From: Escherichia coli
Lineage (GTDB): Bacteria; Pseudomonadota; Gammaproteobacteria; Enterobacterales; Enterobacteriaceae
Assembly: GCF_024223415.1 (NCBI RefSeq)
Contig: NZ_CP100501.1
Reading direction: 5' to 3' (one strand)
Length of the DNA stretch: 64,000 bases
Part shown: positions 9,267-42,142 of the stretch, piece after piece
Layout: the number at the start of each line of letters is the position of its first letter
Numbering within the stretch: position 1 is the stretch's first letter
Translations under genes and position numbers: made by a program
Notes under the pieces: generated by a model
What the model saw: the letters and a program-made list of their open reading frames with translations, nothing else
Told to the model about the DNA's origin: nothing
Databases searched by the model: none

Positions 9267-10365
9267 TGTGATTATCCTCGGTATCTGTGGCTTTCAGGAA
9301 CAGGCTGACGGTAGTGGCGTCTTTCAGGATGCCGGACGGCAGGTGCCAGCCGGTATCGGATAACACCCATGGGGTACCGCCAAAACCGAACTGGCGGAAA
9401 GCCTGGTTATTGACATCGATGGCAGCACGAGCAGCGGTCAGACACTTTTCATCCGGTGCAGCCGGTGCATCGCCGGTGGGTGCCATACCACCGTCTGCGG
9501 AATACAGCTGATGCCATCCGGTCGCCCGTTTTTGTGCGTCCGGTTCACACAGCAGTGGCGCAGTCCGGTTTGTGCTGGCCTCTCCGCCGATTACGGAGAC
9601 CGGATAAATCACCACGCTGAATTCCCGGGCCAGTTGCTTAAGCGCGGGCTCCAGAAGACGGCAGTTGATGCATGCGGGGTCAAGGAAGGCGTAGAGTGTG
9701 CGTTCATGACCAGTGGAGAGATTAATGGTGAACATACCCCGGTCCGCGTTGCGTTTAAGTACAGTGGCCAGATTACGGCGGGCTTCAGCGACCAGAGTAT
9801 TTTTGTCTGCTGTTATCGCCGGGGTAGCGGATGTCTCCTGCATTTCCTGTGATGCCGGGTGAACGATTTCATTTTTCGTCTCTGACGGGGCTACTGACCG
9901 GACAATTTCCTTGTCGATGTGTAATGGTGCTGTTTCTGTTACGGATTCTGTGACAGGTACCCTGAGAGGGGAATCGCTGTCCGGTTTCAGTAAAATATAT
10001 CCGGCTGTTACCGCTGTCAGAAGTGCCAGCACTAATCCTGCACCGTATATCAGCCCTCTCATGAAGCTGGTTTTCCGGGCAGGAAGTTCTGCATATGCCG
10101 CGCTCAGACAGCTGTCAATCGCGGAGAGCATTCTGCCGATGTGATGTCCGGGACGTTCAGTATCAACGGTATCAACAAGCAGTGTTTCGGTTATTTCACG
10201 AAAAGGGGTGCTGAAGGACAGGTGCATCAGCCTGTTATTACGGTTAATCAGTGCGCCCAGTTCTGTAACCGGCAGGATGGCAATAACCTCCTGACCACCG
10301 TCAGGGTACAGGGCGGTCAGGGACAGGTGTTTATTGTTCAGTGTTGCAGTGTAGCGGATGGTCAT
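9247..10365 (-). CDS. trbB: periplasmic thioredoxin-fold protein, DsbC-like disulfide isomerase (TrbB-like)
   Basis: CxxC motif (CINC) within LDPACINCRLLEP; TM/signal-anchor segment; start overlaps trbA stop (ATGA); true start may be internal. Confidence 0.65.
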   Translation of the reverse strand: MTIRYTATLNNKHLSLTALYPDGGQEVIAILPVTELGALINRNNRLMHLSFSTPFREITETLLVDTVDTERPGHHIGRMLSAIDSCLSAAYAELPARKTSFMRGLIYGAGLVLALLTAVTAGYILLKPDSDSPLRVPVTESVTETAPLHIDKEIVRSVAPSETKNEIVHPASQEMQETSATPAITADKNTLVAEARRNLATVLKRNADRGMFTINLSTGHERTLYAFLDPACINCRLLEPALKQLAREFSVVIYPVSVIGGEASTNRTAPLLCEPDAQKRATGWHQLYSADGGMAPTGDAPAAPDEKCLTAARAAIDVNNQAFRQFGFGGTPWVLSDTGWHLPSGILKDATTVSLFLKATDTEDNHNEPASR

Positions 10366-11696
10366 TGTGCTTTTTCCTTGTCGGCGGGATGCTGTTTTTC
10401 GGTGGTTTCGGTGGTTTCGGTGGTTTCGGTGGTTTCGGTGGTTTCGGTGGTTTCGGTGGTTTCGGTGGTTTCGGTGGTTTCACCAGTGTCAGTGTCTTCG
10501 TCGTTATCATGGCGGCGGGGTATCACGTCATCCGTGAGTGACCAGCGGGTCCTGATCTGACGTTTACGATCGCGATCTGGCTGAGGTTCGTCCCATATCA
10601 GGCCCAGCCCCAGCATGTCCCGTCGAAGCCCTTCAATGGCCTCTTCCACACAGGGTTCCGGGCAGGGGAGGCCGAGACGGCTGGCTTCATTTTCTGCCCG
10701 GGCAACGGCCACCACGCCGGCCCCTTCGATGAAGCCTTTTGTGGTGTTTGCCCGGTGAAGGGCATAGAAGAGCGTCCGGTCAACGCCCTTGAGCCACAGC
10801 CAGTTCGGAGGCGTCAGGCGCAAATCATGTGCGTAAAGCCAGACCAGACCGCTGCGAACGTAACGGTGCTGCCTGAGCCACTTTTGTGCGCCTTCTGTTT
10901 TGATGACCCGGATAAAGGCGTTTCTGGCCAGTGAATACACCGGCGTGCTGAAACGCCCCTGGTCCCGTTTACTTTTGAGCCTGCAGGAGAGATTGAGGTT
11001 GTTCATCAGGGCTACCGCTGCTTTCCGGTCACCGAGGAAGAACTGCAGGCCAAAGATGGCAAAGAGCGCTTTTTCATGTGGGGCCATGTCTTTCCAGCTG
11101 GTCAGTGGTTGCCCCAGTTGCGCCATGAAGCACTGGCGTGTGGACGCAACATCGAGCTGCATGTTGCGGATAAGGTTGTTCTGCTCCACAAAGGCTTCGG
11201 GGGTTAGTGCGACACGGCGCTCGGGACGTTTTTGTCCGTGGAAGAGTCTGTTGTTGTCTCCGTCAGCCAGAACGGGGGCGATCGCCGGTGACAGAGCTGA
11301 AAAAATATGGGGCAGTGTGTGGATATTCAGTGGCCTGCGGGTAAAACGGGGCTGGGCCGGATGGTGAAACCACATCCACAGAAAGCCGAATGTCATGGGA
11401 AGCAGAATCAGCCAGAGGATCCCCACTGTCCGGGACATAACATCCAGCCACTGGCTGAAAGTGATGGTTGCCGCGTTGTTAGCAGTGATGGCCAGCAGGT
11501 TGTAACGGGGGACGGCAAAGTTGTGAAAGGGCCCCCAGTCAATCATGCCCCACAGTGTGTGCAGGATCAGGCAGGAGGCGAAGACGATTTCAGGTAAAAA
11601 GCGCCAGATGATAATCGCAAAGAGCAGGCATATGGCACCGACGATATACCATATAGCCATTGGATCTTCGGCGGCAGACGTCTGTTGGTAAGACAC
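10362..11696 (-). CDS. trbA: TrbA-like inner-membrane transfer protein (DotM/IcmP-like partner of the coupling protein) with C-terminal TTE tandem repeat
   Basis: 444-aa product with N-terminal TM helices; gene order trbA-trbB-trbC; C-terminus contains (TTE)x9 encoded by a 9-bp repeat. Confidence 0.6.
   Translation of the reverse strand: MSYQQTSAAEDPMAIWYIVGAICLLFAIIIWRFLPEIVFASCLILHTLWGMIDWGPFHNFAVPRYNLLAITANNAATITFSQWLDVMSRTVGILWLILLPMTFGFLWMWFHHPAQPRFTRRPLNIHTLPHIFSALSPAIAPVLADGDNNRLFHGQKRPERRVALTPEAFVEQNNLIRNMQLDVASTRQCFMAQLGQPLTSWKDMAPHEKALFAIFGLQFFLGDRKAAVALMNNLNLSCRLKSKRDQGRFSTPVYSLARNAFIRVIKTEGAQKWLRQHRYVRSGLVWLYAHDLRLTPPNWLWLKGVDRTLFYALHRANTTKGFIEGAGVVAVARAENEASRLGLPCPEPCVEEAIEGLRRDMLGLGLIWDEPQPDRDRKRQIRTRWSLTDDVIPRRHDNDEDTDTGETTETTETTETTETTETTETTETTETTEKQHPADKEKAQ
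10401..10481. repeat. 9-bp tandem repeat GGTGGTTTC x9 (encodes ETT/TTE repeats at the TrbA C-terminus on the minus strand)
   Basis: Read directly from sequence. Confidence 0.85.
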
Positions 11697-24602: not shown

Positions 24603-27027
<2,425 letters not shown>

Positions 27028-27118
27028 TTTTATAATCCGCCTATTTATTAGGCTGACGTTGTCTCATATAACTGGTACGATATCAATCTCTTTTATCCCC
27101 CCTTAAACGTACATTAAT
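27028..27118. promoter_or_regulatory. putative res/divergent promoter region between tnpA and tnpR
   Basis: Position only (intergenic between divergent tnpA and tnpR, as in Tn3/Tn5393-type elements); subsites not resolved by eye. Confidence 0.35.
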
Positions 27119-27694
27119 ATGACTGGAATCAAGATTGGCTATGCTCGTTGCTCCACAGACCAACAAGACCTAACTGCCCAGATAGATGCGCTGATAAATC
27201 TAGGCATTTCCACTGACAGGATCTATACAGACAAAGGACTGACTGGTTCAAACCGACAGAGGCCGGGCCTAGAACAGGCGCTTGCAGCGGTTCGAGAGGG
27301 AGATACGCTAGTTGTTCCAAAACTAGATCGTTTAGCCCGTTCAGTACCTGATGCAAGAGGTATTGCTGATATCCTACAAGCTCGAGGAGCGAAACTCGCT
27401 CTAGGGGACAGTATCTATGATCCAACAGACCCGATGGGGAAAATGTTCTTCAATATTCTTGCTACTTTTGCAGAGTTTGAAGGAGACCTTATTCGACTAC
27501 GAACTAAAGAGGGGATGGCTGTTGCCCGTTCAAAGGGAAAATTGAAAGGAAAACAGCCTAAATTATCTGAAAAACAACAAAAAGAACTATGCCGTATGCG
27601 TGATACTGGCCAGTACTCTATCAGCGATCTAGCGGAACTATTTACCGTCTCGCGTGCAACGGTTTATCGAACACTTTCACGAGGACAAAAATGA
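27119..27694 (+). CDS. tnpR: serine recombinase/resolvase TnpR
   Basis: 191-aa product with N-terminal catalytic region IGYARCSTDQQDL and C-terminal HTH (ATVYRTLS). Confidence 0.85.
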   Translation: MTGIKIGYARCSTDQQDLTAQIDALINLGISTDRIYTDKGLTGSNRQRPGLEQALAAVREGDTLVVPKLDRLARSVPDARGIADILQARGAKLALGDSIYDPTDPMGKMFFNILATFAEFEGDLIRLRTKEGMAVARSKGKLKGKQPKLSEKQQKELCRMRDTGQYSISDLAELFTVSRATVYRTLSRGQK

Positions 27695-27905
27695 CCGATT
27701 TAACTACACAGCAACATCTAGTAAAAATTGTCCATGATTATGCCTGCCCTCAAAAGGGTCATGGACAGTCCATCAAAGGTTCAAATGGATTACATCTGCA
27801 TTCAATACCCAGATTACTTCCGCTTTGCTAAATGGATAGAACGGTTGGCGTAGGGTATTGTTGATGGTGTAATTAAAGTTCCTAAAGATCATTAAAATAT
27901 CAGAT

Positions 27906-27936
27906 CGGAAATTTAGGCGGTTCCGGCGTAGAACCC
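27906..27936 (-). repeat. internal third copy of the Tn3-family terminal repeat (one mismatch), same orientation as the 30024 end
   Basis: CGGAAATTTAGGCGGTTCCGGCGTAGAACCC on the plus strand, followed by a partial AGAACCCC duplication. Confidence 0.7.
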
Positions 27937-27953
27937 AGAACCCCTTATCCGAA

Positions 27954-28817
27954 TTATTGTTCAGTTAACTTCATTTCGACAAGTAAAGGTAAATGATCTG
28001 AGACAGATGCATATGGCTTACTTTCAGGGGTCGCTCTATCTGACGGTTTAGGAATATATACATCTTTAATGTCCCATTTTTGAGCATTTGATGTAAGTAT
28101 ATAATCAATTTTCCTGTCTGGATTCCATGATGGTGCCGTGTACTTCAATTCCTTATCAGTGTCATTGAACCATGCTGTTAAATCCAAGTACTCTGTTGAT
28201 TGAGGTGGTAAATTAAGATCACCCACTATAATTGGAAGTGCATTTTTAAACTGCCAAGAAGAGAATTTTGTTTGAAGAGTTCTTACTTGCTCTGCTCGTA
28301 ATGGCTGCGTAGTGAAGTCCAAATGAGTAGTTACTAACATAACAGGCGCAGGATAATTAGGGACATCAACTTCTACAGCACAGGCCGCTCTTTGCTCCGC
28401 ACCTTTGATGTTAGGTAGTTCCATCCTTTTACTCAATTTCAAATCATACTTAGACAGTACTGCTGTACCATATTCCCCACCATCATGATCTATAGCCTTG
28501 CAGAAGTAATAATTCATTCCCAACTTATTAGCTATATACTCTGCTTGATTGACTGGGTTAGAACCCTCTTTACTAAAGTTCTTACCAGAACGCCTAGTCA
28601 TGTTATCAACTTCTTGCAGTCCAATAATATCAACATTCATTTTACGAATTGCTTCTACAATGGCATCAGTACTCCCCATTCTAGAGGCCATTATGTTATA
28701 TGACCCAACACGAATACTATCGGTATCTGCTGGACCATCCATGAGGCGATCAGAAGCTAAAGTTGAAGAGGAAAGAACTATAAACCCTATAACCGCAGCA
28801 ATGCTTGTTAATTTCAT
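27954..28817 (-). CDS. secreted endonuclease/exonuclease/phosphatase (EEP) family protein, low-GC cargo gene
   Basis: Signal peptide MKLTSIAAVIGFIVLSSSTLA; EEP-like motifs VGSYNIM near the N-terminus and SDHLPL near the C-terminus; composition much more AT-rich than the tra genes. Confidence 0.7.
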   Translation of the reverse strand: MKLTSIAAVIGFIVLSSSTLASDRLMDGPADTDSIRVGSYNIMASRMGSTDAIVEAIRKMNVDIIGLQEVDNMTRRSGKNFSKEGSNPVNQAEYIANKLGMNYYFCKAIDHDGGEYGTAVLSKYDLKLSKRMELPNIKGAEQRAACAVEVDVPNYPAPVMLVTTHLDFTTQPLRAEQVRTLQTKFSSWQFKNALPIIVGDLNLPPQSTEYLDLTAWFNDTDKELKYTAPSWNPDRKIDYILTSNAQKWDIKDVYIPKPSDRATPESKPYASVSDHLPLLVEMKLTEQ

Positions 28818-28818
28818 T

Positions 28819-29149
28819 TGGATTTGCCCCTATATTTCCAGATACCTGTTATCACTTAACCCATTACTGGCTTGCTGCCGTAGATATTCCCGTGGCGAGC
28901 GATAACCCAGTGCACTATGCGGATGCCATTCGTTATAATGCTCGAACGCCTCTGCAAGGTTCTTTGCTGCCGTTAACCCGTCTGGTTTGGGCATGACACT
29001 GATGTAGTCACGCTTTATCGTTTTCACGAAGCTCTCTGCTATGCCGTTACTCTCCGGACTCCGCACCGCCGTGCTCTTCGGTTCAAGCCCCAACATCCGG
29101 GCAAACTGCCGTGTTTCATTAGCCCGGTAGCATGAACCATTATCCGTCA
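28819..29149 (-). mobile_element. IS2 remnant (one end and the 3-prime part of insD), fused to IS1
   Basis: TGGATTTGCCCCTATATTTCCAGA terminal sequence at 28819; interior near-identical to 2294..2620 of the complete copy; ends 1 bp from the EEP gene start codon. Confidence 0.85.
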
Positions 29150-29444
29150 TCCATATCACCACGTCAAAGGGTGACAGCAGGCTCATAAGACGCCCCAGCG
29201 TCGCCATAGTGCGTTCACCGAATACGTGCGCAACAACCGTCTTCCGGAGCCTGTCATACGCGTAAAACAGCCAGCGCTGGCGCGATTTAGCCCCGACATA
29301 GCCCCACTGTTCGTCCATTTCCGCGCAGACGATGACGTCACTGCCCGGCTGTATGCGCGAGGTTACCGACTGCGGCCTGAGTTTTTTAAGTGACGTAAAA
29401 TCGTGTTGAGGCCAACGCCCATAATGCGGGCTGTTGCCCGGCAT
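28830..29444 (-). pseudogene. chimeric reading frame: IS1 InsB N-terminal part fused in frame to IS2 InsD C-terminal part
   Basis: Product begins [21 protein letters not shown]...VVIWMTD (IS1 InsB) and continues [22 protein letters not shown]... (IS2 InsD). Confidence 0.8.
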
Positions 29445-29693
29445 CCAACGCCATTCATGGCCATATCAATGATTTTCTGGTGCGTACCGGGTTGAGAAGC
29501 GGTGTAAGTGAACTGCAGTTGCCATGTTTTACGGCAGTGAGAGCAGAGATAGCGCTGATGTCCGGCGGTGCTTTTGCCGTTACGCACCACCCCGTCAGTA
29601 GCTGAACAGGAGGGACAGCTGATAGAAACAGAAGCCACTGGAGCACCTCAAAAACACCATCATACACTAAATCAGTAAGTTGGCAGCATCACC
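29150..29693 (-). mobile_element. IS1 remnant (left end, insA and the 5-prime part of insB)
   Basis: IS1 terminal repeat GGTGATGCTGCCAACTTACTGATTTAGTGTATGATGGTG (reverse complement) ending at 29693; insA intact; junction with IS2 at a shared CCGTCA. Confidence 0.85.
29363..29638 (-). CDS. insA: IS1 InsA
   Basis: 91-aa product [43 protein letters not shown]... recognised as IS1 InsA. Confidence 0.85.
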
Positions 29694-35569: not shown

Positions 35570-36170
35570 AGGTGAAGGCCTGCTCGGGGCGGGTGCTGGT
35601 CTGACCGACCAGACGCATCCTGACCGGATACTGGAATTTCCAGAACCAGATGCCGTTTTCCATCTGGCCCTGATTCACCAGCGTGCCGGCCCCGATGGTG
35701 GCTGTGAGGTTAAATTTCTCCTTTTTAATGGTGTCCAGAATGTTGGAGGCCTGAAGAGCATTCACATAGCCGGCAAAACCGGCTTCGGAAAAGCGTGGAG
35801 CCAGTGTCGTGATTTGTTTCCTGTAGTGGACAAAATCCAGATTAAAAGCTTCGCTCAGCGTCATGCTGCCAAACGTCATGACGTCGCTCTGACTCCAGGC
35901 TGGCTGACTGGTGGGGGCCAGGCGGACCAGCCGGCCATTGTCGGTGGCAAAGTATTCGCGCGTCACGTCGGTGGCATGCCAGTACTGTATGATATTGCCG
36001 GTCAGACTGATGACGAGAGCTGCGCTGCTACACAGCAAGGCCCTGACCAGTCCGGGAACCAGTGCGGCCCGTTGTTCTGACTGTGCGATGGTTCTGAGCA
36101 CGGGGTTATAAATATCTCCGCTGTTATCCGCTTCCGGTGAGACAGGGGAGGTGGGTTGTGCTTCGCTCAT
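35475..36170 (-). CDS. traM: TraM-like protein (DotI/IcmL-like)
   Basis: 231-aa product with TM anchor; synteny. Confidence 0.55.
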   Translation of the reverse strand: MSEAQPTSPVSPEADNSGDIYNPVLRTIAQSEQRAALVPGLVRALLCSSAALVISLTGNIIQYWHATDVTREYFATDNGRLVRLAPTSQPAWSQSDVMTFGSMTLSEAFNLDFVHYRKQITTLAPRFSEAGFAGYVNALQASNILDTIKKEKFNLTATIGAGTLVNQGQMENGIWFWKFQYPVRMRLVGQTSTRPEQAFTFEITVRRVDPRIKPGGMEISQMVSRNAASGT

Positions 36171-36181
36171 GGTGCTCCTGT

Positions 36182-36532
36182 TCAGAGGTTATAGTCTTTC
36201 CAGGGGTCGATATTCCCCGGCAGATGTTCATTCACCCGATCCACGACGGCATCACAGACCTGGTTTTCCAGGTCGCGGAGGAGTTTGTCCAGGCTGGGGA
36301 ACTGCGGAAGAGTGATGCTGACGTCCTTGATGCGGGACAGGCAGGACTGCAGGGAAGAGGCGACGTCATTCTCCCGCTGTGACCATGCCTGGCTGGCTGT
36401 GCGCGCCCGCTCCCAGGCGGCTCTGCTGCCGGCTTCGGCAGCGGCCCCCGCCCGGCAGGTGGCGGCACCTGCCACCGGTGATGCCAGGGTGATGCCGGTC
36501 AGTATGACCAGCAGCGTTTTTTTCATGTTCAT
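36182..36532 (-). CDS. traL: TraL-like small secreted protein (start taken at MNMKKTLLVILTGITLASPVAGAA)
   Basis: ORF track extends to 36703 overlapping the sog 3-prime end; the internal Met gives a 116-aa protein with a clear signal peptide. Confidence 0.6.
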   Translation of the reverse strand: MNMKKTLLVILTGITLASPVAGAATCRAGAAAEAGSRAAWERARTASQAWSQRENDVASSLQSCLSRIKDVSITLPQFPSLDKLLRDLENQVCDAVVDRVNEHLPGNIDPWKDYNL

Positions 36533-36548
36533 GGTCGTCCTTACCGGC

Positions 36549-39500
36549 TCATCGGCCGGGGCTGTGAGATTGTGCCTGTTGCAGAGTTTTTTCCTGCCTG
36601 TCCTCCGCCTTTTGGCTGTCAGACCACTCTTTCCAGGTCTGCTCAAAACCCAGAGAGCGGAAAAGCTTGTCCGGCTGCTCTTCCGGTTTGTGGATGGCGG
36701 CAAACAACGGGGAGTCCTGTTGCTTCAGGTGAAACTGCATCAACTGTGGGGCAGGACGCTTAGGGCCGTCCGCATCCCGGTTGATGGCCTCACCGTAACC
36801 GGAAAACTGAAGGCCCCTGTCGGTCATGGCGTTGATGACCAGCTGACGGCTGTCCGCTGTCGGGGTGGCCAGTGCCGGGTAAAGGGTGCCGTTCAGGCGG
36901 ACCACGCCCTGCATGTATTCGTCGGCGCTTTGTAACAGCAGCAGATCCAGACGCTGGCTTTGTTTGTCGACGGAGAAGATGAGCGGCGTCAGTGTGGCGG
37001 GCGGTGTTCCGTTAAGTGGAACCCGCAGTGCCGGGTCTCGCGGTGCAGCGGCTGGCTGGCGGTCCTCCCCCAGATACAGGGTGTCGGGTACTTTGTCGGG
37101 GAGACGTACATCCTGCATGAGCTGTGGCCATCCCTGCTGTAACAGGGTCATCATCTGGCGGAATGTGGCCGCCGGATATTCCCGGATGTACTGGCCTTCA
37201 TGCGGGTTATCATGCGATACGCTGATCCCGTTACAGACCGGTTTCATGGTCCAGATATTTCGCACCCATTCCGGTTTGCCCTGTGATGAAGGTGATCTCT
37301 CCCGGGCCTGCAATGTCAGCGTGACGGGGTCGCCTTTCTGGTGGTTTTTGACCAGTTCTTCCAGGCCTTTTCCCCAGTATTCCCGTTTGCCACTGCGGTT
37401 GGTGAGCTCCACAAAAAAGCAGCGCCCTTTTCCGGGCGCATACTCTTTTTCTCCGTAGTTTGTCAGGACGGCAGTCACACTTTCACCGGGTCTGAGTTTG
37501 CCGGGGGGCTCTTCCTCCGGTGTGTCGGGTTGCTGTGGCTGTGCACTGACAGCGACGTTTCCTGCTGACGATGACGGGGCGGCTGGTTGTTCCGGTGTGT
37601 CGGCCCGGGGGGCTTCAGCTTTTGCCGTGACCGGCGCTTCCGGATGCGGTGTTTCAGCCGTACTGCCTGCAGTTTGCTCTGTTTCTGCTTTCGGTGACAC
37701 AGGGGGGGCCGGTTGTGCCATTGTTGTCTCTTCCGGTGACAGGCGGTTGAGTTCCGGCGTGGGTCTGTGGGTGACGATGGCATCATGCGCCATCCCTTTC
37801 TCCTGGCGGAGTTTTTCCAGCGCAGCCCTCTGGGTCGGGAGTTTCATGCGAACCTTGATGTCGTATTCGACAATCAGTTGCATGGCTTTTTGTTTAAAGG
37901 CATCACTGCCGGTCAGCTCGATAACGCCGCCATAGAAATTGGTGGCCACAGCAAGGGCAGCCAGAACCTTTTTGTCATCCGCGCTGGCGCCATCCACCAT
38001 TTCCAGACGGTTGAGTTTATCCAGGAATGCCGGTTCGCCGTCGACGCGGTAGAGCGCAGTATTGTCGGGTAACTCTTCGTGCTCAAGATTTTTAATAATC
38101 TCGTCCAGGTTGTGCCGCTGCGGACTGTCGGGACGGCGGGGCGCAAAGATAATCGTGTCCGGTTCCGTTGACGATGTGTCTTCCGGGCTGTTTTCCGGTG
38201 GTGATGGTGGTGCGACCTCCTCTGTTGCTGTTTCAGCCTCCGTGGGCTTTTTCTCCTGAATAACGGAAGGTTCTGAGGTGCGTGATTTCCCACCGGTCAG
38301 AAAACGGCGCAGACGGCTGAAAAGCGATGGCGTTTCAGGGTGGGCTGCTTCATTCGCTGTGCTGGTCTCAGTGGCAGACACAGGACGCTCTTCCTGCAGT
38401 TTATCTTCAGCCGTCGGTTCAGCGGTGGCCTGCCGGACTGGCTGAGTTTCTGCAGGTTCAGAAGGTGAGGCTGTTTCTGCTGTGCCGGTGTTGTGAACAG
38501 TGGCAGCAACCGTGGCATCGGCATTGAGCTCCTCAGGCGGTGCGTCACGGTTGTTATCGGGGACGGCAGAGGCACTCTTTTCACTGGTATCCGTTGCAGA
38601 CAGAACATCCTCTTCCTGCGGTTTATTTTCTGCCGTTGCTTCAGGGGTTGCCTGCTGAACAGGCTGAGTCCCGGCAGGTTCAGAAGGTGAGGCTGTTTCT
38701 GTTGTATCGGTGTGGTGAGCCGTGGTCATCACAGTGGCATCAGCGTTGAGGTCTTCCGCAAATGCGCTCCAGTCGTCAGCGCTGGCCATGGAGACCTGCA
38801 GTTGTTCTTCAGTCTGCGTTGTGGTGGTGTGCTGTGTCCCGGTCGCGTCGGAGACGGAGGTTTCCGGTGTGTCGTCACCTGGGGAGAGCTCTTCTGCCTG
38901 TACGCTCTGGTTGTCAGCGGTGGTGGCAGAGGCATTTTTTTCACCGGTATCAGCGGCAGGTATAACGCTCTCCTGAGGTTTGTCTTCTGCTGTTGGTTCA
39001 GGGGAGGACTTCTGAACAGGCTGAATCTCTGCAGGTTCAGGAAGCGTTCCTGTTTCTGCTGTGTTGGTGTTGTGAGCGGTGTCTGTACCTGTGGCGTCTG
39101 TATTGAGGTCTTCCTGGTCGCCAGCGGTAGCCGCAGAGGTATTCTCTGTGCCGGTATCAGCGGCAGACGCAATATTCTCCAGTGGTTTATCCGGGGATAA
39201 CGTCTCCGTAGTTACTGACTGCAGGGATGCATAGGCGGCATAGTCATCTTCATATGCCTGGTTTTCTGTCTCTTCAGTGTGGATGTCATAAGGCGTATCC
39301 GGTGTCGCCAGCACCGTTTCCGGGGCTGTGCTCTGTTTGTTTTCAGGGGACATTTGTGGCTTCTCATCTTTTACCGGTGTGAATATCAGGTTGCCGATCA
39401 CGACAGCTTCACGGTGGTCGGCAGTGTCACTGTTGGGTGTGGGGATACCGATATGTTTTAACTGTGCGTTCATGACATGCTGAAAGTCGTCCCGTCCCCG

Positions 39501-40580
39501 GCTGGCGTCCAGGTCATTGAAATCGGTCAGTCCCTGTGCTTTTTCCTCCTCCGTAAAGGCCGGAATAATGACTTCGCCATTCGTGACTTCTGCGGCTTTT
39601 GTTGCACTAAAAACCCCCTTGTTAATTTCCCGTTGATGATCGTTGTCGGCACAGAAGACAAAGGGGCTGTCAGTCCAGATTTGGCGGGCATTTTCTGCCA
39701 CGGCAATCATATTGCCGGCATCAACTGTCATCAGAACCGGAAGGCCGGTGGCTTCGTGCAGGGAGGCGGCAGTAGCGTAACCTTCCGCAAATAACAGGGG
39801 ACGGCCATTTTCCGGGGTTCCGAAGGTGAACCAGTTGCCGGTTTTCTCGGAGTCTTTCAGAATGCGGGCATCCTTCCCGCCGGTGACCGGAATACGCTGG
39901 TACGAACGTATTTCCCCCCGGCCGTTGCTGAAGGGAATAACCAGCTCATTTTTATTGTTCAGCCGCACGCCAGGCGCGGCCCGGATGCCCTTGCGCGTCA
40001 GGTATTCATGTGCTGTTGCCTGTGGCAACCCGTTAATATAGGAGCGGGCATACCGGGCCTGTTTGTTGTACTGTTGCTGCAGTTTACGTGCGTTATCATC
40101 GCGCTGTTGCTGAGCGAATGCCCGCAGATGCAGTCTGGCCAGAGGATCGTGTTGTTCTCCGCCGGAAAATACCCAGTTTGTGGGACTGTCATCGGCGCTC
40201 CGGTAGTCGCGGTACCAGCCAGCGGGGCGCCCATCAAGATAGGCTTTGTATGCGCCACTTTTGGCCCCTTTTTTGTCATCCCGGGTGGCGACTCTGTGTA
40301 TGGCGCCATCCATCTGTGGCAATCCCTGAATAACCAGCCCGGCGTTTTCCAGGACCTGAGCAAATTCGGTGACCGGATCGCCGGCATCCATCGACAGTTC
40401 CTGCGGCCGGGGTAACCAGCGCTCCAGCAGAGAAAGTTCGGTACCTGCCCGGGCATACCAGAGTTTTTTTTCTGGATCCCATGCGACAGCTTTGCGGCCA
40501 TTTAACGGGGGTACTGCATTTTTTACGGCTTCTGTCTCCTCAGGCGGGACAGCAAGCCAGGTACGATATCTGGACTTCAT
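36549..40580 (-). CDS. sog: Sog-like conjugative DNA primase (N-terminal TOPRIM primase domain, long repetitive acidic linker, C-terminal domain)
   Basis: 1343-aa product; primase-like motifs (LLFAEGYATAASL, FCADNDHQ); position between traK and traL; internal tandem repeats of about 60 aa. Confidence 0.75.
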   Translation of the reverse strand: MKSRYRTWLAVPPEETEAVKNAVPPLNGRKAVAWDPEKKLWYARAGTELSLLERWLPRPQELSMDAGDPVTEFAQVLENAGLVIQGLPQMDGAIHRVATRDDKKGAKSGAYKAYLDGRPAGWYRDYRSADDSPTNWVFSGGEQHDPLARLHLRAFAQQQRDDNARKLQQQYNKQARYARSYINGLPQATAHEYLTRKGIRAAPGVRLNNKNELVIPFSNGRGEIRSYQRIPVTGGKDARILKDSEKTGNWFTFGTPENGRPLLFAEGYATAASLHEATGLPVLMTVDAGNMIAVAENARQIWTDSPFVFCADNDHQREINKGVFSATKAAEVTNGEVIIPAFTEEEKAQGLTDFNDLDASRGRDDFQHVMNAQLKHIGIPTPNSDTADHREAVVIGNLIFTPVKDEKPQMSPENKQSTAPETVLATPDTPYDIHTEETENQAYEDDYAAYASLQSVTTETLSPDKPLENIASAADTGTENTSAATAGDQEDLNTDATGTDTAHNTNTAETGTLPEPAEIQPVQKSSPEPTAEDKPQESVIPAADTGEKNASATTADNQSVQAEELSPGDDTPETSVSDATGTQHTTTTQTEEQLQVSMASADDWSAFAEDLNADATVMTTAHHTDTTETASPSEPAGTQPVQQATPEATAENKPQEEDVLSATDTSEKSASAVPDNNRDAPPEELNADATVAATVHNTGTAETASPSEPAETQPVRQATAEPTAEDKLQEERPVSATETSTANEAAHPETPSLFSRLRRFLTGGKSRTSEPSVIQEKKPTEAETATEEVAPPSPPENSPEDTSSTEPDTIIFAPRRPDSPQRHNLDEIIKNLEHEELPDNTALYRVDGEPAFLDKLNRLEMVDGASADDKKVLAALAVATNFYGGVIELTGSDAFKQKAMQLIVEYDIKVRMKLPTQRAALEKLRQEKGMAHDAIVTHRPTPELNRLSPEETTMAQPAPPVSPKAETEQTAGSTAETPHPEAPVTAKAEAPRADTPEQPAAPSSSAGNVAVSAQPQQPDTPEEEPPGKLRPGESVTAVLTNYGEKEYAPGKGRCFFVELTNRSGKREYWGKGLEELVKNHQKGDPVTLTLQARERSPSSQGKPEWVRNIWTMKPVCNGISVSHDNPHEGQYIREYPAATFRQMMTLLQQGWPQLMQDVRLPDKVPDTLYLGEDRQPAAAPRDPALRVPLNGTPPATLTPLIFSVDKQSQRLDLLLLQSADEYMQGVVRLNGTLYPALATPTADSRQLVINAMTDRGLQFSGYGEAINRDADGPKRPAPQLMQFHLKQQDSPLFAAIHKPEEQPDKLFRSLGFEQTWKEWSDSQKAEDRQEKTLQQAQSHSPGR

Positions 40581-40643
40581 GTCGTTCTCCGGGGATTAAA
40601 GATGAGGGCGTTGTGATACGCCGGGATGATGGACAAAAGAGGG

Positions 40644-40934
40644 CTATTCTGGTCCGTGCCATTCACGGGGTAATTCTGTGCGGTGTCGGTACCACCAGGG
40701 ACGTCCTGATGCCTGCTTACCCTGAAGCAGGCTGTACAGACGTATACAGAGGGTGCGGACTGTCCAGCCGGAATATCCCAGGAGCATAAAAAACAGCAGA
40801 ATGCCGCTGCACACCCAGAATGTCGTTTTTGACGGATACGGAAACAACAGCAGGTAAATCATGGTAAACGGCAGGGGGACACCATAAATGTTGAGCGGTG
40901 GAGTTACATCCCGCCAGAAGCCTTCGCGTTTCAT
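40644..40934 (-). CDS. traK: TraK-like small membrane protein
   Basis: 96-aa hydrophobic product between traJ and sog. Confidence 0.6.
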   Translation of the reverse strand: MKREGFWRDVTPPLNIYGVPLPFTMIYLLLFPYPSKTTFWVCSGILLFFMLLGYSGWTVRTLCIRLYSLLQGKQASGRPWWYRHRTELPREWHGPE

Positions 40935-42142
40935 CGGGGGAACTCTCCGGCCGGGATGAAGAGCGCTGCTTCTGATTTCTCAATGCGGTCGTTCTGATAC
41001 ATGGTCAGAACCTGATCCCTTATCCGCCGTTTTTCCTGACGAATGATTTCGTCAATGTAATGTCCCCATGTTGCATGGGATTGTCCGGAGAGCGTATTGC
41101 GCAGTTCGTCAGTCATGACGATGTATTCCCGGACAGCCTGCCTGCCGCCGTCATTTGTTCTGACCAGTACCTGCACCAGAATGAACTGTACGAGGGAAAG
41201 CGTGGCTGCAGCCATCGAATCCCTGATTTCAGGAGGAAACAATCCCAGCAGGCGGGCAAAGGTTTCTCCGGGTGATTTTGTGTGCATGGTGCCGATACAA
41301 AAGTGTCCGGTATTACCCGCCTGGACTGCGGCATCTGCTGTTTCATAATCCCTGATTTCACCGATACCAATGATGTCCGGATTACGGCGAACGGCAGAGC
41401 GAAGTCCTGCAGCAAAACTTTCCACATCGCGCCCGATTTCGGCCTGATGGGGAGGCAGAAGGTCATTCTCTCCGCCCAGAATGTATTCCACCGGATCTTC
41501 ATAGGTCACTATTTTGCGATCGGGGAAATTTTTCAGAATGTGGCGATACAGTGCCGCCGCCAGTGTGGATTTCCCGGAGCCGGTTTCTCCGCAGATGAAG
41601 CCCAGGCCGGTTTTTCTGAGCATGGCATCCAGCAGATCCGGTTCAATATTCATAGTGAGGATGTCCGGAATATCTGACGGGATCACCCGCATGGTGACGG
41701 AAATGGCTTTTTCTTCTGTTGCCGATGTTCCCTGTATCAGGTGGCAGCGCAGGCGAACACGCTGACCTCGTTGCAGGCCATAGCGACCGGAGGCATCTCC
41801 GCTGACCTGAATGGTACGATCCACGGGATGACCTGACAGAACCCGGGGAAGAACCTCCCGCCCAAACAGCTCATCACTCAGTGCCATCATGATGGAGGAC
41901 GGAAGGGGATTTACGGATGAGCGAACCCGCCGTCCAAAGCGACTGACGGATACCGGTGAACCGCCGGTCAGATCAATATCACTGACGCGGTGGCGGGCAC
42001 ACCAGGCAAAAAAATGGCGAAACTCTTCTGCCGTAAAACGGGAGAAGGGGAAGGTACCGAAGTCATCTGGTGATATCATTTTTCTCTCCTTCGGTGCTGA
42101 CAAGAGGGCGCCAGCGCGATTTCTGCAGCGTAAATTCAGCAT
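40931..42142 (-). CDS. traJ: TraJ, DotB/PilT-like secretion ATPase (start probably internal at MISPDDFG...)
   Basis: Walker A GETGSGKST and PilT/VirB11-type motifs. Confidence 0.75.
   Translation of the reverse strand: MLNLRCRNRAGALLSAPKERKMISPDDFGTFPFSRFTAEEFRHFFAWCARHRVSDIDLTGGSPVSVSRFGRRVRSSVNPLPSSIMMALSDELFGREVLPRVLSGHPVDRTIQVSGDASGRYGLQRGQRVRLRCHLIQGTSATEEKAISVTMRVIPSDIPDILTMNIEPDLLDAMLRKTGLGFICGETGSGKSTLAAALYRHILKNFPDRKIVTYEDPVEYILGGENDLLPPHQAEIGRDVESFAAGLRSAVRRNPDIIGIGEIRDYETADAAVQAGNTGHFCIGTMHTKSPGETFARLLGLFPPEIRDSMAAATLSLVQFILVQVLVRTNDGGRQAVREYIVMTDELRNTLSGQSHATWGHYIDEIIRQEKRRIRDQVLTMYQNDRIEKSEAALFIPAGEFPR

Follow-up and report, generated by a model that had tools for sequence, protein, structure and literature searches.

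Why should a conjugative DNA primase carry tandem repeats in the middle of its coding sequence, and does the number of these repeats change? The question is raised by sog, which lies on the minus strand at 36549..40580 of the 64,000-nucleotide (nt) stretch of Escherichia coli DNA analysed here (contig NZ_CP100501.1; hereafter the window), and which encodes SogL, the conjugative DNA primase of an I-complex (IncK2/Z-type) plasmid. The initial annotation had described a Sog-like product of 1343 residues, longer than that of plasmid R64, with about three near-identical units of some 60 residues (about 180 bp) in an acidic linker, and had proposed that the array may be a variable-number locus that could alter the spacing between the primase and the C-terminal domain. 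The open reading frame (ORF) of 1343 codons is indeed sog by its position, its domains, a full-length alignment with IncI1 sogL and the annotation of the plasmids pCh101 and pGF60-A. The product exceeds R64 Sog (1255 residues; PMC6112013) by 88 residues, this surplus being located in the linker (426 residues, versus 334 in IncI1). We consider it probable that the four in-frame units make up most of a flexible, acidic and disordered tether within Sog, the length of which is shifted by unequal recombination or slippage in a near-neutral manner.

A degenerate repeat array in sog

The repeat array occupies 38325..39185 on the minus strand (residues 466–752) and comprises four units, each composed of a B and an A motif, followed by a partial fifth unit, as delineated by direct-repeat families, a scan with hidden Markov models (HMMs) of the units, unit alignment and shuffle tests. 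HMMs built from the copies resolved the two sub-motifs, a 49-residue A motif (consensus EDLNADAT...H.T.TAET...SEPA..QPVQQAT.EPTAEDKPQEE) and a 21-residue B motif (of the form.V.SA.DT.EK.ASA...DN.), which follow one another in the order B1-A1, B2-A2', B'-A3, B3-A4, B4 in units of 57–74 residues. Unit 1 (residues 469–537; 38970..39176, minus strand, as are all units) consists of B1 (39114–39176) and A1 (38970–39113). Unit 2 (residues 538–594; 38799..38969) contains B2 (38907–38969), a spacer (residues 559–563) and a degenerate A2' (38799–38891), with a copy of a 40-nt repeat at 38795–38834. In unit 3 (residues 595–657; 38610..38798) a truncated B that includes ADDWSAFAEDL (38757–38798) precedes A3 (38610–38756), and in unit 4 (residues 658–731; 38388..38609) B3 (38547–38609) is separated from A4 (38388–38534) by a 4-residue spacer. 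The partial unit 5, found by the HMM scan, is B4 alone (residues 732–752; 38325..38387). Three of the A motifs are well preserved (residues 490–537, 609–657 and 683–731) and one is degenerate (residues 564–594). A 28-nt block in A3 (CAGAAACAGCCTCACCTTCTGAACCTGC; 38674..38701, minus strand) has an exact copy in A4 at 38452–38479.

The repeats are thus real and lie where the initial annotation had placed them, but there are four units, one of them degenerate, rather than about three near-identical ones, and their nucleotide identity is 69–80%. Pairs of A units share 75–80% of their nucleotides and 62–73% of their residues, and for the pair of full 74-residue units these values fall to 69% and 58%. 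Direct-repeat searches returned a 222-nt pair at 38335–38778 (73% identical), a three-copy family of 144 nt at 38392, 38614 and 38971 (76–79% identical) and a four-copy family of 40 nt with spacings of 222, 180 and 177 nt, the distances between the ends of successive A units. The proposed period of about 180 bp therefore holds for two of the three spacings, the third being 222 nt, and a spacing of 360 nt in further repeat families marks a higher-order repeat. When the protein was compared with itself, the best match had 30 identities in 40 residues at an offset of 74, whereas shuffles of the linker residues gave a mean of 12 and a maximum of 15; identity over the whole region at the best offset lay about 10 standard deviations above residue and codon shuffles. 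Of the checks that had been suggested, self-comparison thus revealed periodicity beyond that of shuffled sequence, but Tandem Repeats Finder, run on 36000–41000 with a minimum score of 30, reported nothing, because the units are too diverged. We conclude that this is an old, degenerate in-frame tandem array and not a high-identity minisatellite.

The array also gives rise to spurious overlapping ORFs, as had been pointed out: 10 further ORFs of at least 60 codons lie in other frames, including an antisense ORF of 162 codons at 38712–39200, and two alternative frames over the array contain 0.7 stops per 100 codons, versus 1–4.5 for such frames over the primase and C-terminal portions of the gene. 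Such long alternative-frame ORFs might speak for a further gene, read in a different frame or from the opposite strand, or, more broadly, for a function of the repeats at the level of the nucleic acid, as iterons, as an internal promoter or terminator, or as a structured RNA. The antisense ORF, however, has no match in Pfam or NCBIfam, no promoter-like site was detected, terminator-like sites are at background (4, compared with 2.4 ± 1.5 in shuffles), and a search of 36000–41000 against Rfam at gathering thresholds gave no match. Moreover, the units have diverged mostly at the third codon positions of sog (A3 and A4 differ at 7 first, 6 second and 16 third positions), as if sog were the sole selected frame. 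The depletion of stops in the alternative frames can be attributed to the bias towards ACN, GCN, GAR and CCN codons, and we regard a second gene or a function of the DNA or RNA itself as very unlikely.

Length variation among related plasmids

The suggestion that sog may be a variable-number locus was borne out by its relatives. Eight product lengths occur among related plasmids (1269, 1281, 1338, 1341, 1343, 1353, 1458 and 1463 residues), with two A units in the 1269- and 1281-residue forms, three in those of 1338–1353 residues and four in those of 1458 and 1463 residues. All 11 alleles retrieved as DNA are intact ORFs in which every indel is a multiple of three, and in samples of matches the span of the linker region differed from that of the window by -222, -186, -15, -9, -6, +12, +30 and +360 nt. 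The larger changes are in register with the units. Plasmid pCFSAN083829_2 carries an exact deletion of 222 nt that amounts to the loss of unit 4, with its junction within the 28-nt block common to A3 and A4, and the allele P0014 has a clean intra-allelic tandem duplication of 120 residues (360 nt) that covers B2-A2'-B'-A3. The 1463-residue allele of pDR19cip_scFOS is chimeric, its head resembling the window type and its tail the 1353-residue type, and therefore points to an unequal crossover between alleles. That the spacing of the flanking domains is altered, as had been anticipated, follows physically from the change in length.

Copy-number differences of this sort might also be thought to reflect errors of assembly, since short-read assemblies can collapse or expand repeats. 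The divergence between units is nevertheless sufficient for unique assembly, one and the same allele turns up in numerous independent records, complete long-read genomes among them, and the junctions of the deletion and of the duplication are precise and in frame; it is thus exceedingly unlikely that the repeats or the differences in their number are artefacts.

Linkers of this type were found in 443 plasmids of PLSDB and in 336 of 5426 complete E. coli genomes, in the latter on plasmids only. Among the 60 best matches in complete genomes the +30 nt allele (1353 residues) was the commonest (about 38), ahead of the -6 nt allele (about 11) and the window type (about 10). Of the 120 closest database proteins, 103 are 1343 residues long, and 57 contigs encode the exact protein of the window. 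The sog linker is therefore length-polymorphic between lineages, with alleles that track plasmid lineages, and is not hypervariable. This distribution bears on whether sog could be a contingency (phase-variable) locus, in which frequent slippage would toggle the gene or quickly change its length, an idea for which the existence of copy-number variants is the one argument. Long units (171–222 nt) that are 69–80% identical are poor substrates for slippage, and Tandem Repeats Finder detects no array; every indel preserves the frame and each of the 11 alleles is open; and the predominance of one length among the closest proteins, together with the recurrence of the exact protein, indicates alleles that are stable within lineages. 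Contradicted by its long diverged units, its in-frame indels and its lineage-stable alleles, a contingency locus is extremely improbable here.

Beyond the array, sog as a whole is a recombination mosaic. When 36549–40580 of the window was compared segment by segment with L005, L008, L009 and L010, the synonymous divergence of the same allele pair jumped from about 0 to 0.2–0.6 between adjacent segments. Several of the apparent breakpoints coincide with the borders of the array, and the linker may be a preferred site of crossover or may be swapped as a cassette. In the literature that we searched on sog repeats, length variation, I-complex plasmids and general Sog biology, we found no description of the repeats or of the variation in length.

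The acidic linker and its possible roles

The array lies within an acidic, low-complexity linker that separates the primase from the LPD7 domain and is predicted to be disordered (residues 387–819; 38124..39422, minus strand). In keeping with its description as an acidic Thr/Pro/Glu-rich segment, residues 466–752 (287 residues) carry a net charge of -48 and are rich in Thr, Ala, Glu and Pro (17% Thr, 17% Ala, 20% Asp plus Glu and 9% Pro), with 0.7% aromatics. The 426 residues from 410 to 835 have a net charge of -63, and charge-hydropathy analysis classes them, like residues 466–752, as disordered; the linker has no match in Pfam or NCBIfam. An AlphaFold2 model of residues 250–960, computed with a 40-sequence alignment of diverse relatives, gave a predicted local distance difference test score (pLDDT) mostly below 50 for residues 387–819, with the Toprim (92–98) and LPD7 (78–95) domains confidently placed in the same model. 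By both measures, disorder prediction having been proposed earlier as a check, the segment is predicted to be an intrinsically disordered acidic linker. Constraint on the sequence is relaxed here: between alleles, the ratio (omega) of nonsynonymous (dN) to synonymous (dS) divergence was 0.46–0.58 in the repeat region versus 0.04–0.16 in the primase and LPD7 domains, for those comparisons that had enough substitutions to estimate it.

The linker would take a different place in each of two products of the gene. For R64, SogL of 1255 residues and SogS, an 844-residue product of translational reinitiation, both reach the recipient (PMC6112013), and for the IncI1 plasmid pESBL the tabulated coordinates of SogS fit a start at about residue 412 (PMC4288162). 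From these two sources, and from the alignment of M410 with M412 of IncI1 SogL, we infer that the in-frame ATG at 39351..39353 (minus strand) is the SogS start in this plasmid lineage, which would give a product of 934 residues here. Ten of the 11 alleles have ATG at this position and the remaining one has GTG, and a stretch rich in purines lies 8–9 nt upstream. The repeat array begins 56 residues into the putative SogS; in SogL, it sits between the primase and LPD7.

Taken together, these observations suggest a way in which the array may have been shaped. In SogL, the acidic segment would tether the N-terminal Toprim primase to LPD7 and the C-terminal moiety, and in SogS, from M410 onwards, it would form the N-terminal tail. 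The array would have originated by tandem duplication, and its length would occasionally change through unequal homologous recombination or replication slippage between units, either within an allele or between the alleles of different plasmids, with sog alleles of 1269–1463 residues in IncK/B/O/Z/I-gamma plasmids as the outcome. Selection would act mainly on composition (negative charge, few hydrophobics) and on the presence of a long flexible spacer, not on the exact sequence or copy number, so that changes in length would be tolerated and probably near neutral. Both the tether role and this near-neutrality are what we infer from the pattern described.

Several points weigh against so simple a tether. 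First, AlphaFold2 placed three short helical islands in the linker, QAYEDDYAAYASLQ (residues 441–454), ADDWSAFAEDL (residues 601–611) and FSRLRRFL (residues 754–761), and with three such conserved islands the linker is not featureless. Second, the A-unit paralogues have an omega of about 0.27 at a dS of 0.58–0.75, which indicates moderate purifying selection, with B motifs at about 0.95. Third, in a comparison of 23 distinct copies, about 17 of the 49 A positions showed at least 90% conservation; as this is more sequence than one would expect a pure spacer to retain, the A peptide may act in a sequence-specific manner. Finally, no experiment on linker length was found in the literature searched, and near-neutrality is read from natural variation alone.

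Two of the islands are motifs that contain aromatic residues, ADDWSAFAEDL (38748–38780) and QAYEDDYAAYASLQ (39219–39260), both modelled by AlphaFold2 as isolated helices. IncI1 Sog has counterparts at about residue 522 (DKDWREFEAEL) and about residue 635 (EDYSAYQEL), in the reverse order relative to the window protein, and the DDW motif is present twice in the alleles with the 120-residue duplication. Strict regular expressions for the two motifs matched close relatives only. Both are candidate short linear interaction motifs.

The conservation of the A units bears on another reading, which we consider unlikely, namely that these units are functional acidic docking modules whose candidate partners are TrbA, the DotM-like subunit of the I-type (type IVB) coupling complex by which Sog is exported, or a basic, DNA-binding surface of Sog, and whose copy number tunes export or activity by multivalency. 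In its favour, the A-unit paralogues have stayed conserved despite an old duplication, with the B motifs drifting neutrally, and every A unit retains a conserved core together with a terminus rich in Glu (...TAEDKPQEE). TrbA, encoded in the window at 10362–11678 (minus strand), has a DotM_C domain (E = 1.4e-47), and DotM of Legionella binds the Glu-rich signals of IcmSW-independent effectors (PMC8740702). Sog of ColIb-P9 is transferred into the recipient during conjugation, and its export is plasmid-independent and involves large numbers of molecules (PMC8406263). On the other hand, the known Glu-rich signals lie within the last 20 or so residues, whereas the A/B units are at least 590 residues away from the C-terminus of Sog; IncI1 Sog is exported without A units or repeats; the two-, three- and four-unit alleles all reside on complete plasmids typed as conjugative; AlphaFold2 predicts no structure for the A units; and compositional constraint together with gene conversion between units could by itself lower omega.

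The more specific proposition that the 49-residue A units are multivalent acidic docking modules for TrbA, or else an intramolecular mimic of DNA, seems quite improbable. If docking of this kind did take place, the two-, three- and four-unit alleles would tune the export of Sog into recipients or its engagement of the incoming single strand, and the units would amount to a signal for secretion or regulation that is repeated within the interior of a conjugative type IVB substrate. The DotM_C domain of TrbA links the coupling complex of the plasmid to Legionella DotM, the receptor for Glu-rich effector signals. For the array itself, a disordered acidic tether of changing length is the explanation that we favour.

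The sog locus and its relatives

The domains that the tether would connect are recognizable on either side of the linker. Pfam matches on Sog comprise DUF5710 (residues 6–57), Toprim_3 (residues 264–364) and LPD7 (residues 842–927). The Toprim_3 primase core (39489..39791, minus strand; PF13362) scored 28.2 bits against a cut-off of 27.2, and was seen only when the N-terminal 400 residues were scanned alone, having been missed in the Pfam scan of the whole protein; its AlphaFold2 pLDDT of 92–98 extends over residues 250–384, and the EGYATA motif (residues 266–271; 39768–39785, minus strand) lies inside it. LPD7 (37800..38057, minus strand; PF18821, E = 2.1e-11) is the first folded domain past the linker, with a pLDDT of 78–95 over residues 820–930. 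Full-length Sog had no sequence match in the PDB, and NCBIfam gave no family. A second, shorter low-complexity linker, rich in Pro, Ala and Glu, lies between LPD7 and the C-terminal domain (residues 961–1040; 37461–37700); it has no aromatics, is constant in length among IncK-type alleles and is about 23 residues shorter in IncI1.

According to the annotation of the near-identical plasmids pCh101 and pGF60-A, sog is located between traK and traL in the MPF_I (Dot/Icm-like) transfer operon, where the gene order is traJ, an ORF of 96 residues, sog, an ORF of 116 residues, a DotI/IcmL-like gene and a DotH/IcmK-like gene. The records nearest to the window sog belong to conjugative plasmids of the IncK2/Z and IncI-gamma/K1 types, pCh101 (99.1%) among them. 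A 1421-nt query from the linker region matched pGF60-A at 100%; this plasmid is colinear with the window at 99.97% over 25156–48074, the only stretch in which the coordinates coincide. As annotated in pGF60-A, with which the window is colinear here, the transfer region is broken at 25163–29639, where several kb of fragments from Tn3, IS1 and an integrase separate traT from a traU-like ATPase gene, along with a recombinase and an endonuclease/exonuclease/phosphatase gene. An IS3-family element at 5212–6524 of the window occupies a site that differs from that in pGF60-A, and the window lacks the IS21 copy of the latter; it therefore belongs to a plasmid closely related to pGF60-A but distinct from it.

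Disordered linkers built from repeats are a familiar kind of feature, and the array described here is an ordinary feature of the Sog family, the proteins of which are themselves all in public databases already. Current understanding of conjugation is unchanged by these results. Their practical bearing is that the length polymorphism of sog in IncK/B/O/Z/I-gamma plasmids can mislead annotation and quality checks based on gene length, and yields spurious ORF calls. Conversely, the length of sog could serve as a simple marker, sized by polymerase chain reaction, for plasmid sublineages, and the two-, three- and four-unit alleles provide a natural series in which linker length or A-unit number can be set against the export or function of Sog.

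Among known systems, the Sog proteins of the IncI1 plasmids R64 and ColIb-P9 share with the window protein the traK-sog-traL arrangement, an N-terminal Toprim domain with EGYATA, LPD7 and a homologous C-terminal region, as well as a conserved, putative internal start that aligns with the known SogS start and a segment between primase and LPD7 that is acidic and rich in Pro, Ser, Thr and Glu. With pN600 (annotated sogL) as the IncI1 reference, the two proteins align end to end, with a dN of 0.22 in LPD7 and 0.32 in the C-terminal region and an omega of 0.11–0.17. They differ in overall length and in the linker, which in IncI1 Sog spans residues 412–745, is similar in composition and equally acidic (net charge -55 over 334 residues), but contains neither an internal repeat (the best 40-residue window had 12 identities, compared with a shuffle mean of 11.4) nor an A or B motif. 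The two linkers are essentially unalignable (dN of about 1.0) except at the DDW..F and YAAY-like motifs. The possibility that the region would simply be colinear with R64 sog and lack extra units was thus not realized: the IncI1 linker is shorter, free of repeats and too diverged to be colinear with that of the window. The 'sogS' of pOU7519 is a truncated remnant only.

Closer relatives, the IncK2/Z, IncB/O and IncI-gamma/K1 alleles (for example those of pCh101, pMbl488, pRM10042-1 and pMS7163B), share the A/B architecture at 82–99% nucleotide identity and differ from the window in copy number and small indels; the A/B units are confined to this E. coli K/B/O/Z lineage. The E-block signals of Legionella Dot/Icm effectors, which DotM recognizes (PMC8740702), are akin to the A units in that they are acidic, Glu-rich and unstructured, and in that a receptor of the DotM type is present here as TrbA. 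Yet they occupy the last 20 or so residues of their proteins, whereas the Sog units are repeated and internal (residues 466–752 of 1343), so that the likeness is a functional analogy at most.

Distant Sog/Pri primases, such as Pri of the IncM plasmid pCTX-M3 and metagenomic relatives, likewise have the primase, an acidic low-complexity linker and LPD7 in this order, many of them with repeats, and pCTX-M3 Pri, too, may give rise to a shorter product from its C-terminal part (PMC6112013). In a sample of 42 such relatives, each representing a 50%-identity cluster and having both the primase and the LPD7 domain, the linker was without exception net acidic (median of -0.12 per residue) and poor in aromatics, and ranged in length from 59 to 752 residues. 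At least nine lineages have linker repeats of their own, with periods of 14, 15, 17, 30, 33, 35, 60, 64 and 78 residues. As these units are unrelated to those of the window in sequence and period, the repeats are independent expansions, and growth of the linker by tandem duplication is a recurrent habit of the family. Much younger linker repeats, with up to 30 of 30 identical residues between copies and periods of 17–64 residues, occur in the distant Sog relatives P0145, P0162, P0165, P0136, P0178 and P0125, which would be better candidates for an unstable variable-number locus than the array of the window. Since the family linker is always acidic, varies more than 10-fold in length and has been extended by many independent duplications, the pattern suggests selection for a long tether of negative charge, not for a particular sequence.

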